From an archaeon (GTDB taxonomy: Archaea; B1Sed10-29; JAJRYS01), in the NCBI GenBank assembly GCA_024275665.1, contig JAJRYS010000018.1, positions 5,442 to 69,441 on the forward strand: DNA of 64,000 nucleotides, in the 5' to 3' direction. The position numbers were made by a program, and so were the translations under genes. Within the stretch, counting starts at the first letter, position 1, and every line of letters begins with the position of its first letter. This document shows, one piece after another, positions 2,251 to 49,876 of the stretch. The notes under the pieces are model-generated. The model was not told the DNA's origin and ran no database searches. It saw nothing but the letters and a program-made list of their open reading frames with translations.

Positions 2251-2898
2251 ATGAATTTTGAGGAAAAGCTTGAAAAACTTAAAAAAATTACTGAGAGGGA
2301 AATGCAGGGCAGTGGTTGTGTTGTTCACGACTGGAACCACGTGCTAAGGGTTTTCAGAAATGCGGAAATGCTGTGGAAGGAAGAAGGAGGAAACTGGGAG
2401 ATAATAGCACCAGCAGTGCTTCTTCATGACGTAGTACGCCCGGTCACGAAAGGAATCAAGAACGACCACGCGTTGCTCAGTTCTCATAAAGCAAGACCAA
2501 TCCTTGAAGAACTATGCTTTGACCACGTTGACAAGATAACGACATGCATTCTAAGGCATTCGAGTTCAAGCAGCAGGAAGCTTCCTGAAACAATTGAAGA
2601 GAAGATAGTATGGGACGCTGACAAGATTGACGGGTTCGGGTTGATGGGCGTAGCACGAACTATGATACTCTCAGGGGAGAGGAGCAAAGGAGTAGAAGAA
2701 ACAGCCAAGGAATGGCTTGAAGAGATTAAGAGAATAGCAGGAACAACAGAAGACATCGACACAGTGGTTGAGAAGTGGTTGTTCACAGACACTGCGAGGA
2801 GAAAGGCCAAGAAGAAAGTTGCTTTCTTCATCGACTTCTACAAAACTCTTCTCGGAGAATCAGAGGAAGAAAAGTATTATTCATTCTTCCAACCTTAG
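2251..2898 (+). CDS. HD-domain phosphohydrolase
   Basis: H…HD metal-binding motif (VLRVFRN…LLHDVVRP) and downstream D residue pattern typical of HD superfamily. Confidence 0.55.
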   Translation: MNFEEKLEKLKKITEREMQGSGCVVHDWNHVLRVFRNAEMLWKEEGGNWEIIAPAVLLHDVVRPVTKGIKNDHALLSSHKARPILEELCFDHVDKITTCILRHSSSSSRKLPETIEEKIVWDADKIDGFGLMGVARTMILSGERSKGVEETAKEWLEEIKRIAGTTEDIDTVVEKWLFTDTARRKAKKKVAFFIDFYKTLLGESEEEKYYSFFQP

Positions 2899-4428
2899 TC
2901 TTTTTACTACGAATTCTTTGTCAAGCGAGGCGAGGAACGGGCCTAGACGCGGGCCCCTGCTTTTGCCAAGCAGTAACTGGTAGAAGACCATGAAAGCAGT
3001 TTTTAAAGGAATCTCCTTCTCTTTTGCCTTGTTGTAAATGAATTGCTGTATTTCATCTCCTGCACGCGTTCCTGTTTCAATGAAGTCAGCAGTGTCTCTG
3101 AGGAGTTCTTTTACTTCTTCCCCCCACTCGCTCAGCATGACGTCCGGCATTTCTTCCTTGACAGTGAATTTGAATTGTTCCGGAGCGTAGTCCTGAACCC
3201 AGTTCCAAGCAAGCTTCAGCCTTTCGTCAGCATGCTCGTACGCGTGTCCTGTTTTCTTCAGGATTTTCTTGGCTTTTTCCACGTCCCCTAATGCTATCTG
3301 GATAGCGTTCACGCACACTGAGAACTGAGGAAGCTCAACATAACCGTGCTCTCCTATTCTTGAAAAGAAGTACCTGCGTGCCTCGTTTTCATCAGCACTG
3401 TTCTCCACACTGTAATACTTCTTCCTTGCTTCGTCAAAATAGTTGTAAGTGTTTAACAAGTCAGCGTCAAAGCTGATGTCAAAAGCCTTGTTGATCTTAG
3501 CAGTGTACAAATACCTTACTACTTCAGGCTCGTACACTCTCAGCAACTCAGTGACCGTGACCACATTTCCCTTCGAAGAACTCATCTTCTCCTTCTGGCC
3601 TTTCACGTTCACAAACTCGTACATTGGGCCTATTGGAGGCTCGTGTTCAAAAACCTGCCTAGCTATTAACACTCCAGTGTCCCAAGAGCCTCCTGCTGCT
3701 TTGTGGTCCTTGCCACTGCTCTCGAAGTCAACGTCATAGAAAGCCCAACGCATAGGCCAGTCAACCCTCCAAGGAAGCTTTGCATTACCAGGCTTCTTGC
3801 TGAAGTCAAGCACTGCTTTGTGACCGCAAACGCATTCGTACTCCAATTCATAGTTTCCAAGGTATTTTGCTTTCGTAGTGTCCTTGCCGCATTCCTCGCA
3901 GTACACTCTTACAGGAAGCCATCCTTCTTCTAATGGCTCTGCTCTGTACTTGTCAAGAATGTTTTTAATCAGTGAAGTGTTTTCTAATGCTTTTTTAACC
4001 ATTTCAACAAACGTTCCAGCAGGGTATTCTTTTGAAGCATGCTTGAAACTCACTTCTATTACAAGTTCTTGCATTTCTCTTATTACTGGTTCCTGGAAGT
4101 GTTCTGCGTAGGAGTCATGACAACCCCAAGGGTCAGGAGTCTTGCTAATAGGAATGCCAATGTACTTTTCCCATTCTGAAGGAACTCCTATTGGTACTTT
4201 CCTGAACCTGTCGTAATCATCCCAGAAGTACTGGTAAATTGCTTTGACTCCCTTGTCCAATAGTGCTTTGTAAACGAATTCCTGCGTGAGGATTTCCCTG
4301 AAGTTCCCAACGTGAACTATTCCAGAAGGAGTAATACCACTCTCTACTATGTACTCTTCTTTCTGTTTTCTCTTCACTATCTCGTCAGCATACTTGTCAG
4401 CCCAGTGCTTTGGTTCTTCCTCTTTCAA
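2881..4428 (-). CDS. lysK: lysyl-tRNA synthetase, class I (archaeal type)
   Basis: HVGNFRE (HIGH-like) and KMSSSKGN (KMSKS) motifs, 515 aa, class I LysRS architecture. Confidence 0.9.
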   Translation of the reverse strand: MKEEEPKHWADKYADEIVKRKQKEEYIVESGITPSGIVHVGNFREILTQEFVYKALLDKGVKAIYQYFWDDYDRFRKVPIGVPSEWEKYIGIPISKTPDPWGCHDSYAEHFQEPVIREMQELVIEVSFKHASKEYPAGTFVEMVKKALENTSLIKNILDKYRAEPLEEGWLPVRVYCEECGKDTTKAKYLGNYELEYECVCGHKAVLDFSKKPGNAKLPWRVDWPMRWAFYDVDFESSGKDHKAAGGSWDTGVLIARQVFEHEPPIGPMYEFVNVKGQKEKMSSSKGNVVTVTELLRVYEPEVVRYLYTAKINKAFDISFDADLLNTYNYFDEARKKYYSVENSADENEARRYFFSRIGEHGYVELPQFSVCVNAIQIALGDVEKAKKILKKTGHAYEHADERLKLAWNWVQDYAPEQFKFTVKEEMPDVMLSEWGEEVKELLRDTADFIETGTRAGDEIQQFIYNKAKEKEIPLKTAFMVFYQLLLGKSRGPRLGPFLASLDKEFVVKRLRLEE

Positions 4429-4638
4429 GAAAACCAGCCCCTCATGCTCTTCTTGCTCTTGCTTTCTTCAGCTTTGCTTCTCTTTCTCTTCTTGCTTTCT
4501 CAGCAATCCAGAAAGCTTCTGCTTTTTCAAACGTTATTTCTCCTTTCAACACTCTGAGTTTGAGCTCCAAAGGCCATTCTTTTGGAAAATGAATCATGAT
4601 TGTATTACTCATTACTCGTTTAAAAAAAGCAAAGCAAA

Positions 4639-4782
4639 CGGGCCCGATGGGATTTTCGTGAAGAACTGCACTAAGAGCACGTCTTCTTTCGAACCCACGA
4701 CAACCTGGTTAAGAGCCAGGCGCTCTGCCATTCCAGGGATTAAAAACGCAACACGCTTTAACCCTGACTGAGCTACGGGCCC
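4639..4782 (-). tRNA. tRNA-Lys(CTT) with two putative introns (D-loop about 35 nt, T-loop about 35 nt), none at 37/38
   Basis: Minus strand: acceptor GGGCCCG/CGGGCCC, U8A9, D-stem GCTC…GAGC interrupted, anticodon stem CCTGG/CCAGG with loop CTCTTAA, T-stem GTGGG/CCCAT with TTCGAA loop interrupted by a hairpin-forming insert. Confidence 0.6.
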
Positions 4783-4859
4783 ATGTTTTTTGTTTTAATT
4801 GTTAAGAATAATAATCCTGTGCGCTTATTTTATATTCGTCTTCGTTTTAAAACATTACC

Positions 4860-5378
4860 ATGATCACAGTACTGCGCTTGGGGCATAGGAGAGTAAGGGA
4901 TGCCAGGGTTTCCACTCACTGCGGGTTGGTTGCTCGTGCTTTCGGAGCAGACGGCATAGTGTATTCTGGTGAAAAGGATGAGAAATTGTTGGAAAGCATT
5001 GCTGACGTTAGCAGGCGTTGGGGAGGAGAATTCAAGGTTGCTTATAACAAGAACTGGCGCAAGGTGATACAGGAATTCAAAGGAGTGAAAGTGCACTTGA
5101 CAATGTACGGGCTGCCTTTCCAAGAACATGTTAGTAAACTGCGTGGAGAGGACTTGCTCGTGGTTGTTGGCGGTGAGAAAGTTCCTTGGGATGCTTACGA
5201 ATTATCTGATTTTAACCTAAGCGTTACTAGCCAGCCTCATTCTGAAATAGCTGCTCTCGCAGTGTTCTTGGATCACTTGTTCGATGGAAAAGAGCTTGGG
5301 AAAGAGTTTAAAGGAGGTTTGAAAGTAATTCCACAAGCCCGCGGCAAGATAGTGAGAACAGGGGAAGAAAAGGAATAA
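4860..5378 (+). CDS. trm56: tRNA (cytidine56-2'-O)-methyltransferase aTrm56 (SPOUT)
   Basis: N-terminal [26 protein letters not shown] is the aTrm56 signature; about 175 aa. Confidence 0.75.
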
Positions 5379-12714: not shown

Positions 12715-13114
12715 CGCTTACAAAAGTCTGAACATTGGAGGAAACTGTTGAATCCTTTAAAGGTCTTGCAGATGAAGGGCTCCTTGCTTGAATAGTAACT
12801 ATAGGATTCATTGATGAATCATAAACCTTAATGGTTAATTGTTTTTTATGCTTGCTTTTAAACAACGTGCTAAGAGCATTTCTTAGCAAGGTTTGCGCTT
12901 GTAATGTGTTCCCGTTCACAGCATAACTCACTGCTCTATCAAGGTCTCCTTTTGCTCTCATTGCTTGCAAAGCAGTTGAAGTTTGCAAAGCTGTTTCAAC
13001 CCCTGAAATTTGTGAAAAAGGAAAAGACTGCATGAATGCTATTGCAAATACTGAGAAAGAAGCGATTAGTAATAAGGAAACCACTGCATCAAGAGAAAAC
13101 ACAAACCCCTTCAT
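12674..13114 (-). CDS. minor pilin-like protein (class III signal peptide)
   Basis: MKGFVFSLDAVVSLLLIASF N-terminus. Confidence 0.5.
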   Translation of the reverse strand: MKGFVFSLDAVVSLLLIASFSVFAIAFMQSFPFSQISGVETALQTSTALQAMRAKGDLDRAVSYAVNGNTLQAQTLLRNALSTLFKSKHKKQLTIKVYDSSMNPIVTIQARSPSSARPLKDSTVSSNVQTFVSGDYYAIVYLQVWE

Positions 13115-19757: not shown

Positions 19758-19939
19758 AAAGCCTCAGTCCGCCTATCAATCATCATTCGCATGCCGCGGA
19801 AAAGCGTCTGATTGAGGATAATCATCATCGGCTGTTAATAATTATGAAAAATGTTGATTAAACAAACAAATGCTTTTAAATAAAATAAACTCAAACCAGT
19901 TTGAAAATTGATTTAATTATTAAAAACGAAAAAAAAGAT

Positions 19940-20526
19940 AATGAACAAAATAAGAATAAAAAAATTATCAAAAAAAAGAAGAGTACCTTCTTGAATTATT
20001 TCTAGGAGATGGGTATTTTTCAATAGATAAGAATAAGCATTACAAAACTTGTTTTTGTCTAAATCCAAAAAAAGACTTCTTGATAATGCTTAAAGTGGTA
20101 TTATTACTAAAAAAGATTGAGTTAAATTCTTATCTTATTAATAATAATGGATGTGTTGAGGTAAAAGTAAATTCAATACTATTTATGGATTATATGAAAG
20201 AAAGTTTGAAAAAATGGTGGGATGAACCGGAAAGTTATTTACTTGGAGTTATTAGTGGTCTTATTGATTCTGACGGAAATATTGGCAATGGTGAAATAGT
20301 AATAACAAATAAGAACAAAAGTATTTTAAAGAAAGTAAAAGAAATTATTAATAAGAAGAATATTCACACTAAGTTGTGGATAAAACAAAACAAAGGAAAA
20401 GAGGATAAGTGGAAGTTTAATATTTACAAATTGAGAATTGGAACTGCTTTAAAAAACCTTGATCATTGTTCTTTAAAGGTTAAGTTCTTGAATAGTGGGG
20501 ATTCCGCAGCGACTAACAGGCATTAA
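19940..20526 (+). CDS. LAGLIDADG homing endonuclease, double-motif, apparent frameshift in A8 run near 5' end
   Basis: ATG at 19940 gives MNKIRIKKLSKK then stop; the other frame, open from 19959, reads …EEYLLELFLGDGYFSIDKNKH… and continues into the listed ORF containing LGVISGLIDSDGNI: two LAGLIDADG motifs about 100 aa apart. Confidence 0.7.
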
Positions 20527-20647
20527 AAATGCTTGTTAGTTGTAAGGGTAGGGCAGCTTGGAGTGCCCGTCGGGCTCATATGCGTTCCGGTTCCAAAAGG
20601 AACGCGGAAACACCCGAAGGTCAGAGGTTCAAATCCTCTCCCCGCTA
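20508..20647 (+). tRNA. initiator tRNA-Met(CAT) with two putative introns (acceptor stem after pos 4, and 37/38)
   Basis: A1:U72, AGCG|…|GGG acceptor pairing with CCCCGCT, U8A9, D-stem GGGC/GCCC with A14 and G18G19, anticodon stem with three G:C (TCGGG/CCCGA), loop CTCATA, T-arm AGAGG-TTCAAAT-CCTCT, discriminator A. Confidence 0.6.
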
Positions 20648-48357: not shown

Positions 48358-48527
48358 CGCCTCGGGCAGGATTTTCTCACCGTCCAGTTGGCTTTTTTCC
48401 GCTGTGAAGCGGAAACCAGGCCACTTCAGCTTCAGCTGAATGTGGTCTCAGCCAGCCGGATACGGATGTTCGAACCTGCGGTCTCACGGTTAACAGCCGT
48501 GCGCTTTAGCCACTAAGCTACCGAGGC
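48358..48527 (-). tRNA. tRNA-Asn(GTT) with about 100-nt intron in T-loop (59/60)
   Basis: Minus strand: GCCTCGG TA GCTT AGTGGCTA AAGC G CACGG CTGTTAA CCGTG AGAC CGCAGG TTCGAA [insert] T CCTGC CCGAGGC G. Confidence 0.6.
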
Positions 48528-48598
48528 GTTGTTTGTTCAGTGTCTGAGAATGTTTGTGTGTAGTGTTTGTTTCTTTAGAATTGGTTTTATTTAAAACA

Positions 48599-49876
48599 TT
48601 AAGGATAGTATCTTTCAGGTGTTCTTGGGAATGGTATTGCGTCTTTTATAGAGTCAAGCTTGCAAATCCACTGGATCAAGCGCTCTACTCCCATTCCGAA
48701 TCCAGCGTGAGGCACTGCTCCGTACTTCCTGAGGTCGAAGTACCATTCGTAGTGTTTTGGATCTTCTCCTTTTTCAATGAGTGCTTTCTTCATTTCCTCG
48801 ATGTCAAGGTCTCTTTCACTCCCTCCTATTACTTCGAATCCCACTTCTGGGAGTAAGACGTCTAGGCATCTTGCTACTTCAGGGTCTTCAGGATCTCTTG
48901 GTTTGTAGAAAGCCATTGCTGATTTCGGGTAATGAGTTACTATTAACGGCTTGTCGTAGTGAGTCATTAATTGTTTTTCTTCCTTGGTTCTGAGGTCTTT
49001 CCCGAAAGGAACACTTATTCCATCTTTTTCAAGAATCTTCAAAGCTTCTCTGTAAGTGATTCTTGGAAAAGGAGGTTTTATTCTGAGCATTTCTTCAGGG
49101 TCTCTTCCCAGGAGTTTGAGTTCTTCAGGGTATTCTTCTGCAACGTATTCGCATACGTATGAGATTAGTTCTTCACTTGTCTTTGCAAGCTCGTCCAAGT
49201 CCATCCAAGCTGCTTCCATCTCAGCGTGCCAGTATTCTGTCAAGTGGCGTGCTGTTTTTGACTTCTCAGCTCTGAACGAAGGGTTTATAGTGTATATTCT
49301 TTCAAGAGCAGGGAGTAATGCTTCTGCGTAGAACTGCCATGTTTGTGACAATCTTAGTTTTTTCCCAAAGTAGTCTACTTCAAATAATTCCAAACCACTT
49401 TCAGAAGTCATGGTGATGAAAGGAGCGTGAGTCTCGTAGTATCCTTTTTTCTTGAAGTATTCCCTAATGGCCCAGAACACAGCGCTTCTAACCTTCCACA
49501 CTGCTGTCAGCTTTCTTGACCTGACTGCCAAGTGCCTTACGTCAAGAAGGAATTCTTCTGAATAGTCTTTCGTAATCGGGAATCTTTCAGCAAGTTGCAC
49601 TACTTCGTATTCTTCTACTCTTACTTCGTAGCCTCCTGGCGCTCTCTCATCTTTGACTACTTTTCCTTTTAGTTTGATGCTTGATTCTATGGTTGTTTTT
49701 TCTGCTTTTTCAAAGAAAGGAGAGTCTTTTTTCACAGTGCATTGGATTATGCCGCTTGAGTCTCGCAGGATTATGAAAACTACTTCTTTCGTGGCTCTGT
49801 GTCTGTAAACCCAGCCACGCAACCACACGCTTTCTCCTTCGTGTTCCGGCACTTCAGAAACTTTTATGAAATCCAT
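48599..49876 (-). CDS. asnS: asparaginyl-tRNA synthetase (class IIb)
   Basis: OB-fold N-terminus, motif 2 FRAE, RHLTEYWHAEME and SQTWQFYAEA fit AsnRS rather than AspRS, motif 3 GFGMGVERL. Confidence 0.7.
   Translation of the reverse strand: MDFIKVSEVPEHEGESVWLRGWVYRHRATKEVVFIILRDSSGIIQCTVKKDSPFFEKAEKTTIESSIKLKGKVVKDERAPGGYEVRVEEYEVVQLAERFPITKDYSEEFLLDVRHLAVRSRKLTAVWKVRSAVFWAIREYFKKKGYYETHAPFITMTSESGLELFEVDYFGKKLRLSQTWQFYAEALLPALERIYTINPSFRAEKSKTARHLTEYWHAEMEAAWMDLDELAKTSEELISYVCEYVAEEYPEELKLLGRDPEEMLRIKPPFPRITYREALKILEKDGISVPFGKDLRTKEEKQLMTHYDKPLIVTHYPKSAMAFYKPRDPEDPEVARCLDVLLPEVGFEVIGGSERDLDIEEMKKALIEKGEDPKHYEWYFDLRKYGAVPHAGFGMGVERLIQWICKLDSIKDAIPFPRTPERYYP

Follow-up and report, generated by a model that had tools for sequence, protein, structure and literature searches.

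Does the G+C-rich island of 144 nt that lies beside the gene for lysyl-tRNA synthetase (LysRS) in a 64-kb archaeal sequence (contig JAJRYS010000018.1, positions 5,442 to 69,441; hereafter the window, whose own numbering is used throughout) encode a working tRNA-Lys, and at which positions would its transcript have to be cut? A sequence-only reading of the window had proposed that a tRNA-Lys(CTT) gene is interrupted here at two non-canonical sites, by introns of about 35 nt each in the D-loop and the T-loop. The analysis described below makes it very probable that the island, on minus strand 4782..4639, is a functional, spliced two-intron tRNA-Lys(CUU) gene of a member of the Micrarchaeota and that both introns are of the bulge-helix-bulge (BHB) type.

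Standard tools did not recognize the gene in its interrupted form. ARAGORN returned zero tRNA calls on the whole unspliced window, and the two partial tRNA matches reported in the window by Rfam at the gathering threshold were both located outside the tRNA-Lys gene. When applied permissively, the Rfam tRNA model scored 22.8 bits at the tRNA-Lys locus (gathering score, 29), and in this partial match the D-loop insert was taken as a 41-nt insertion and the T arm failed. Removal of 4765..4731 and 4687..4653 left a product of 74 nt, GGGCCCGTAGCTCAGTCTGGCAGAGCGCCTGGCTCTTAACCAGGTTGTCGTGGGTTCGAATCCCATCGGGCCCG, which ARAGORN called as tRNA-Lys(CTT) with a regular cloverleaf (stems of 7, 4, 5, and 5 bp), the identity that had been proposed from the sequence. 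With only one of the inserts removed, the program returned nothing or a spurious model. The spliced tRNA-Lys carries U8, A14, G18, G19, A21, U33, G53, U54, U55, C56, A58, and C61. The 144-nt precursor had a fold energy of -63.3 kcal/mol (z = -5.9 against 200 dinucleotide shuffles), and the G+C content was approximately 65% in the exons, 43% in each intron, and 35-39% in the flanks.

The complete gene (4639..4782, minus strand) consists of three exons of 17, 43, and 14 nt and two introns of 35 nt. Exon 1 (4766..4782) contains the 5' acceptor strand GGGCCCG, U8 and A9, the 5' D-stem strand GCUC, and the D-loop nucleotides A14, G15, U16, and C17, and was delimited by the BHB scan and the orthologue alignment described below. 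Intron 1 (4731..4765; AGGGUUAAAGCGUGUUGCGUUUUUAAUCCCUGGAA) is located in the D-loop at 17/17a, as determined by the scan, by shuffling, and by comparison with the related loci L001 and L002. Exon 2 (4688..4730) contains the rest of the D-loop (UGGCA), the 3' D-stem strand GAGC, G26, the anticodon arm CCUGG-CUCUUAA-CCAGG, the variable loop UUGUC, the 5' T-stem strand GUGGG, and the nucleotides U54 to A59 (UUCGAA); the anticodon CTT (4711..4713) was assigned by ARAGORN on the spliced sequence. Intron 2 (4653..4687; AGAAGACGUGCUCUUAGUGCAGUUCUUCACGAAAA) is located in the T-loop at 59/60, a placement that follows from the minimum-energy fold, from shuffling, and from the same site in L001. Exon 3 (4639..4652) contains U60, the 3' T-stem strand CCCAU, the 3' acceptor strand CGGGCCC, and the discriminator G73 at 4639, with no CCA encoded; U60 precedes CCCAU because the T-loop intron falls between A59 and U60. 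The inserts are restricted to the D-loop and T-loop. The anticodon loop CTCTTAA is unbroken on the minus strand, in agreement with the sequence-only reading.

The splice sites were assigned by BHB geometry, which comprises a 4-bp central helix, two 3-nt bulges with cuts after the second bulge nucleotide, and inner and outer helices. Every possible excision from the precursor was scanned, and the listing was restricted to candidates with all four central pairs. The predicted introns were top-ranked among all BHB candidates, and the best candidate in the whole precursor was the excision of pre-tRNA nt 18-52 (4765..4731), that is, intron 1. Its central helix UCAG/CUGG (U12 to G15) has 4 bp, its bulges are UC↓A and AA↓U (arrows mark the cuts), and a 9-bp inner helix directly abuts the central helix; with an outer helix of 1 bp, the motif belongs to the relaxed HBh' type. 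For intron 2 (pre-tRNA nt 96-130), the 5-bp T-stem serves as the outer helix, and the central helix UUCG/CGAA is accompanied by the bulges AA↓A and AA↓U. The hairpin that had been noticed in the T-loop insert corresponds to the inner helix (5 bp plus 3 bp), and one extra unpaired A before the central helix makes the motif near-strict hBHBh'. Shuffling of the intron letters reproduced the observed BHB geometry in 0 of 20,000 trials for intron 1 and in 7 of 20,000 for intron 2. The minimum-energy fold contains the intron 2 motif (pair probabilities, 0.89-1.0), and moving the boundaries of this intron 1-2 nt to the left gives an identical product. BHB-compatible structures were thus present at both junction pairs, and this geometry sets each intron at exactly 35 nt.

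We further assessed the gene model by comparison with orthologous tRNA-Lys genes at the loci of the closest Micrarchaeota LysRS relatives, L001, L002, and L003 (78%, 58%, and 58% LysRS identity, respectively). At all three loci, the tRNA-Lys gene is located upstream of lysK on the same strand. The L001 gene (168 nt) has exactly the two sites of the window gene occupied, by introns of 47 and 46 nt whose sequences are unrelated to those of the window introns, whereas the L002 gene (123 nt, approximately 1.1 kb upstream of lysK) contains a single 49-nt intron at the same D-loop site, and the L003 gene (74 nt, with its 3' end 2 nt before the LysRS ATG) is intronless. The D-loop intron has the same anatomy in all three genes that contain it: UCAG pairs with CUGR, the 3-nt 5' bulge reads UC↓N, and the inner helix abuts the central helix, while the inner-helix starts (GGGUUAAAG.., CUGCAGGAGCU.., and AGGC..) are unrelated. 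When eight tRNA-Lys sequences from DPANN archaea were aligned (five intronless and three after in silico splicing), the cloverleaf cells had 100% standard pairs and showed covariation, with seven pairs changed on both sides; in a register control, sliding the 3' partners by 1-3 columns reduced pairing to 25-54%. Judging by this alignment, these are living tRNA genes.

The two introns of L001 (2825-2871 and 2916-2961) are alike over their full length and both start with UCUGCAG (local alignment z = 9.5 against shuffles), a likeness that points to duplication or transposition of an intron inside a single gene. When the window introns were compared with each other and with the rest of the window, no similarity beyond chance was found; intron 1 of the window and intron 1 of L002 share a weak 11-nt match.

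Other ways of splicing the precursor were surveyed by passing 982 single or double BHB excisions through ARAGORN, which accepted 17 variants. Apart from the favored product, the accepted variants included a nominal Leu(TAA) and a nominal Asn(GTT), and those that were listed had poorer BHBs, products of 69-83 nt, or worse alignment with the orthologues. A variant with intron 2 at 4691..4657 tied on the orthologue score, and it has the T-loop UUAAAAU without C56 and no outer helix. The search for a better alternative tRNA model thus gave no accepted variant that fitted the intronless orthologues better, and the variants that were examined were without conserved tRNA features.

Several points weigh against the interpretation as a spliced two-intron gene. 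Splicing is predicted from the DNA sequence, and ARAGORN was permissive, accepting 16 spliced variants besides the favored one. No EndA (tRNA_int_endo), RtcB, or CCA-adding enzyme was found among the approximately 70 open reading frames (ORFs) of the window compared with Pfam, and genome coverage amounts to the 64-kb window; a second, uninterrupted tRNA-Lys(CUU) gene may lie elsewhere. The BHB register of intron 1 lies approximately 12.5 kcal/mol above the local minimum-energy fold, with a pair probability of about 0, and its outer helix does not extend beyond the single pair. Because the exon/intron junction reads UCAG-UCAG, the intron CUGG can pair one register further in, forming a continuous 6-bp helix, and the minimum-energy fold takes this shifted register in the window gene and in L002, whereas the L001 fold takes the BHB register. 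The competing register of the window is not conserved, because it cannot form in L001; since the BHB register is conserved, we did not take the shifted fold as a refutation, and we judge that the comparative sequence data outweigh the folding weakness of the D-loop.

The same data bear on the possibility that the gene has the same two introns and that the D-loop intron is cut 1-3 nt further 3' (nt 19-53, 20-54, or 21-55), which would give the D-loop AGUCAGGCA. ARAGORN accepts such a product equally, its orthologue score is only one point lower, and the precursor, in its predicted fold of lowest energy, adopts a register other than that of the BHB. However, none of these boundaries has BHB-like geometry (at most two of four central pairs by hand reading), they are absent from the BHB scan list, which contains 4/4 central helices only, and an arrangement of H, a 3-nt bulge, and h' at C17↓N is kept in three genes. 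Moreover, the intronless orthologues read YUGG at the modeled junction AGUC-UGGCA, as do L001 and L002, which argues against AGUCAGGCA and makes a shifted boundary improbable. The D-loop splice site is C17/U17a, with the mature D-loop AGUCUGGCA, as fixed by BHB geometry and the orthologues.

Two further explanations question whether the inserts are removed at all. The locus could be a decaying pseudogene with two insertions, unexpressed or unspliced, while a working copy resides elsewhere in the genome; the failure of standard tools to find the tRNA-Lys and the restriction of the available genome to 64 kb are compatible with this view. Yet the exons are intact, 100% paired, and covarying with those of the orthologues; the insertions occur exactly where BHB geometry forms; and in the relative with 78% LysRS identity, the same two sites are filled with other intron sequences and the BHB is preserved. 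The position next to lysK is conserved as well, and all three tRNA genes of the window are similarly interrupted, so that the same argument would turn three of three into pseudogenes. We therefore consider a pseudogene very unlikely. That the inserts are kept as expansion segments in an oversized mature tRNA is hardly credible: both would break the D-loop/T-loop elbow (G18, G19, U55, and C56) needed by every canonical tRNA, the motif that the splicing endonuclease recognizes is present in them, and they vary in length, sequence, and presence among close relatives, whereas the exons are conserved.

For the two-intron tRNA-Lys(CUU) gene, we infer how the transcript is made, cut, and ligated, in which order the introns leave, and which type of EndA acts from the anatomy of the locus and by analogy with known systems. 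The 144-nt precursor would be transcribed from its own A/T-rich promoter and would end at a run of seven T residues. EndA would cut at four sites, between C17 and A and between A and U17a in the D-loop and between A59 and A and between A and U60 in the T-loop, after which an RtcB-type ligase would join the three exons. RNase P and RNase Z would trim the ends, and CCA would then be added post-transcriptionally, because the gene does not contain it and GTTTGC follows G73. The 74-nt product would be charged by the adjacent class I LysRS. The relaxed D-loop motif implies an EndA of broad specificity, and this suggests that the enzyme may be of a form such as the ε2 EndA of ARMAN-2.

The neighboring lysK gene (2881..4428, minus strand) encodes a class I LysRS (PF01921, 3.3e-117; TIGR00467 lysS_arch, 2e-148) and begins 210 nt downstream of the tRNA-Lys gene on the same strand, so that this part of the sequence-only reading also stands. 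A TATA-like A/T-rich box, ATTATTATT (4807..4815, minus strand; -33 to -25 from the mature 5' end), is a putative promoter read from the sequence, and the run of seven T residues (4622..4628, minus strand; 11 nt downstream of the tRNA-Lys gene) is a likely archaeal transcription stop. Together, the two elements suggest that the tRNA-Lys gene may form an independent transcription unit. Between this gene and lysK lies a lysine/arginine-rich ORF of 51 codons, MIHFPKEWPLELKLRVLKGEITFEKAEAFWIAEKARREREAKLKKARARRA (4442..4597, minus strand), for which no Pfam match and no tblastn counterpart in the related loci were found and which may not be a real gene. Because the T run and this ORF separate tRNA-Lys from lysK, the two genes are probably transcribed separately here. 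On the other side, 77 nt separate the tRNA-Lys 5' end from the divergent gene for the C56 methyltransferase aTrm56 (4860-5378, plus strand). The central helix of the T-loop BHB includes C56, and methylation and splicing may therefore be ordered, which is pure speculation.

Among 185,579 species genomes, the closest LysRS relatives were the three Candidatus Micrarchaeota metagenome-assembled genomes that contain the loci compared above, followed by other DPANN archaea and then by Thermococcus, and metagenome matches repeated this picture. The gene order lysK-polyprenyl synthase is common to the window and its Micrarchaeota relatives. From the LysRS relatives and this synteny, the host is assigned to the Micrarchaeota (DPANN). 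It is possibly hydrothermal, a guess based on the sample names of the relatives and on the Thermococcus-like next-best LysRS.

The tRNA-Lys gene is not the only interrupted tRNA gene in the window. All three tRNA genes are interrupted, by five introns in total at 4/5, 17/17a, 37/38, 59/60, and 59/60, and ARAGORN recognized the initiator tRNA-Met and tRNA-Asn genes only after manual splicing. The initiator tRNA-Met(CAT) gene (20508..20647, plus strand), with A1:U72 and the GGG/CCC anticodon stem, contains two introns. One, of 34 nt (20512..20545), interrupts the acceptor stem at 4/5 and has the central helix GCAG/UUGU and an inner helix of 11 bp; the other, of 31 nt (20581..20611), is located at 37/38 and has correct BHB geometry with only two of four central pairs. 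The tRNA-Asn(GTT) gene (48534..48358, minus strand) contains a 97-nt intron at 59/60 (48468..48372) and is located 64 nt downstream of the co-oriented gene for asparaginyl-tRNA synthetase (AsnRS; 48599..49876, minus strand; NF003037, 446 bits).

An A/T-rich block (approximately 19942-20526, plus strand; 16-35% G+C) encodes an ORF resembling LAGLIDADG homing endonucleases (Pfam LAGLIDADG_3, 1.8e-8). Both motifs (LELFLGDGYF and LLGVISGLIDSDGN) are present, and a poly-A run near 19970 appears to contain a frameshift. The 3' end of the ORF runs into the 5' exon and the acceptor-stem intron of the initiator tRNA gene. A search of 5.8 billion proteins found no homologue besides the ORF itself, and there was no significant match in the PDB. 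The ORF is possibly a mobile element, connected with the interruption of the initiator tRNA gene. An alternative model, in which the ORF is located inside a BHB intron of approximately 700 nt with the 5' exon AGCG at 19803, fits worse, with three of four central pairs and a 5-bp inner helix by hand pairing count, compared with four of four and 11 bp in the 34-nt model, which was tentatively retained for this reason. Elsewhere in the window, a sub-threshold Rfam match to the C/D-box snoRNA family SNORD102 (12825-12892, plus strand; 33.4 bits; gathering score, 47; E = 0.15) overlaps minus-strand ORFs and could be an archaeal C/D-box small RNA.

Further observations concern tRNA genes of the related loci. 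In L002 (63-170, 184-314, and 1790-1913), ARAGORN labeled the tRNA-Lys(CTT) with the D-loop intron as a tRNA-Gly(ACC) with an intron, and it also reported a tRNA-Lys(TTT) with a 28-nt intron and a tRNA-Leu(GAG) with a 55-nt intron. Read by eye, the insert in the tRNA-Lys(TTT) is located just after the anticodon stem, not at 37/38. Introns are frequent in the tRNA genes of this relative too, and its automatic tRNA labels are unreliable. In L004, the last approximately 17 nt (GGATCCCCTCGGGCCCG) of the tRNA-Lys(TTT) gene at 2611-2686 recur approximately 120 nt downstream (2802-2818), which is the pattern left by an element integrated into a tRNA 3' end.

A close linkage of tRNA-Lys to a following lysK was observed in the window and in L001, L003, L004, L037, and L046, and in none of the Thermococcus or bacterial loci compared. 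A tRNA-Asn gene follows the AsnRS gene in the window and also in L161, the closest AsnRS relative (72% identity), where it is intronless (75 nt; 2818-2892). In L003 (1538-4527; same contig as L084), tRNA-Ser(GGA), SerRS, tRNA-Lys(CTT), and LysRS genes follow one another on one strand, an array resembling an operon in which each synthetase gene is paired with its cognate tRNA gene. Linked genes are not always cognate, since the order in L001 is tRNA-Asn, SerRS, tRNA-Lys, and LysRS. A shallow literature search turned up no description of a recurring cognate tRNA/synthetase linkage. A bolder interpretation, which we regard as doubtful, holds that the co-oriented tRNA and cognate synthetase genes would form a functional unit in which the pre-tRNA is co-transcribed with, or processed from, the synthetase mRNA; separately, it holds that BHB introns would still be moving in this lineage, because the introns of L001 are paralogous and close genomes differ in intron content.

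For the Thermoproteales, multiple introns and non-canonical intron positions in tRNA genes are textbook knowledge. Up to three introns per tRNA gene, as well as intron transposition, have been described for this order (Sugahara 2008 and Fujishima 2010, as relayed in PMC4033280, PMC4090602, and PMC8450103). As in the Thermoproteales, the genes compared here contain several short BHB introns at many non-canonical positions, close genomes differ in intron presence, and similar introns occupy different sites, as in the D-loop/T-loop pair of L001. In contrast, Thermoproteales belong to TACK rather than DPANN and have an (αβ)2 enzyme with a Crenarchaea-specific loop, and the two introns of the window gene are mutually dissimilar.

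Closer precedents come from the Micrarchaeota. In ARMAN-2 (Candidatus Micrarchaeum acidiphilum), 56% of the tRNA genes are disrupted, pre-tRNA-Cys(GCA) contains an intron at 59/60, pre-tRNA-Pro(GGG) contains introns at 53/54 and 59/60, and the transcripts are processed by an ε2 EndA, for which cleavage of relaxed BHBs has been shown in vitro (Fujishima et al. 2011, PMC3239211). Both ARMAN-1 and ARMAN-2 are named explicitly as having multiple and non-canonical tRNA introns (PMC4033280), an ε2 EndA has also been published for Mancarchaeum Mia14 (PMC5829648), and 59/60 is among the known intron positions in a review (PMC4090602). The window gene resembles the ARMAN-2 genes in its phylum-level lineage (by LysRS), in its multiple non-canonical BHB introns, in the site 59/60, in the mixture of strict and relaxed BHBs, and in that disrupted genes are missed by default tRNA finders; it differs in the isoacceptor (Lys CUU), in the pair of sites (17/17a and 59/60), and in its non-ARMAN micrarchaeotal host. 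With the canonical archaeal intron at 37/38 (strict hBHBh'), it shares a splice-site geometry in which two 3-nt bulges are 4 bp apart and each is cut behind its second nucleotide, and the same enzyme family and ligase are presumed, whereas its anticodon loop is intact and its D-loop motif has no proper outer helix and is in competition with the D-stem. The split tRNA-Lys(CUU) of Nanoarchaeum equitans and Staphylothermus (30/31, PMC4090602) presents the same disrupted isoacceptor repaired through a BHB, and N. equitans is also a DPANN archaeon; there, however, two separate genes are joined in trans, whereas the window gene is contiguous and its introns, at other positions, are in cis.

The two-intron tRNA-Lys thus adds to a known kind, because multi-intron tRNAs, introns at 59/60, and an ε2 EndA have all been published for the Micrarchaeota, and, taken singly, the gene is nothing unusual in its lineage. 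What is mildly new is the graded intron series at fixed sites, the paralogous introns of L001, and the recurring tRNA/synthetase linkage. Because ARAGORN found none of the three window tRNAs, Rfam reported only fragments, and the L002 gene was mislabeled, "missing" DPANN tRNAs are partly a detection artefact, as had already been suspected (PMC5829648); tRNAscan-SE 2.0 includes an iterative search for non-canonical introns (PMC8450103). The recurring adjacency of tRNA and cognate synthetase genes deserves a systematic count, and if the doubtful functional-unit interpretation were true, the processing of the tRNA, with intron removal as a part of it, would control or signal how strongly the charging enzyme is expressed. 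The four orthologues (two introns in the window gene, two different ones at these sites in L001, one in L002, and none in L003) form a natural series of intron gain, loss, and replacement, and the mutually similar introns of L001 extend the idea of intron duplication and transposition from the Thermoproteales to a DPANN lineage.

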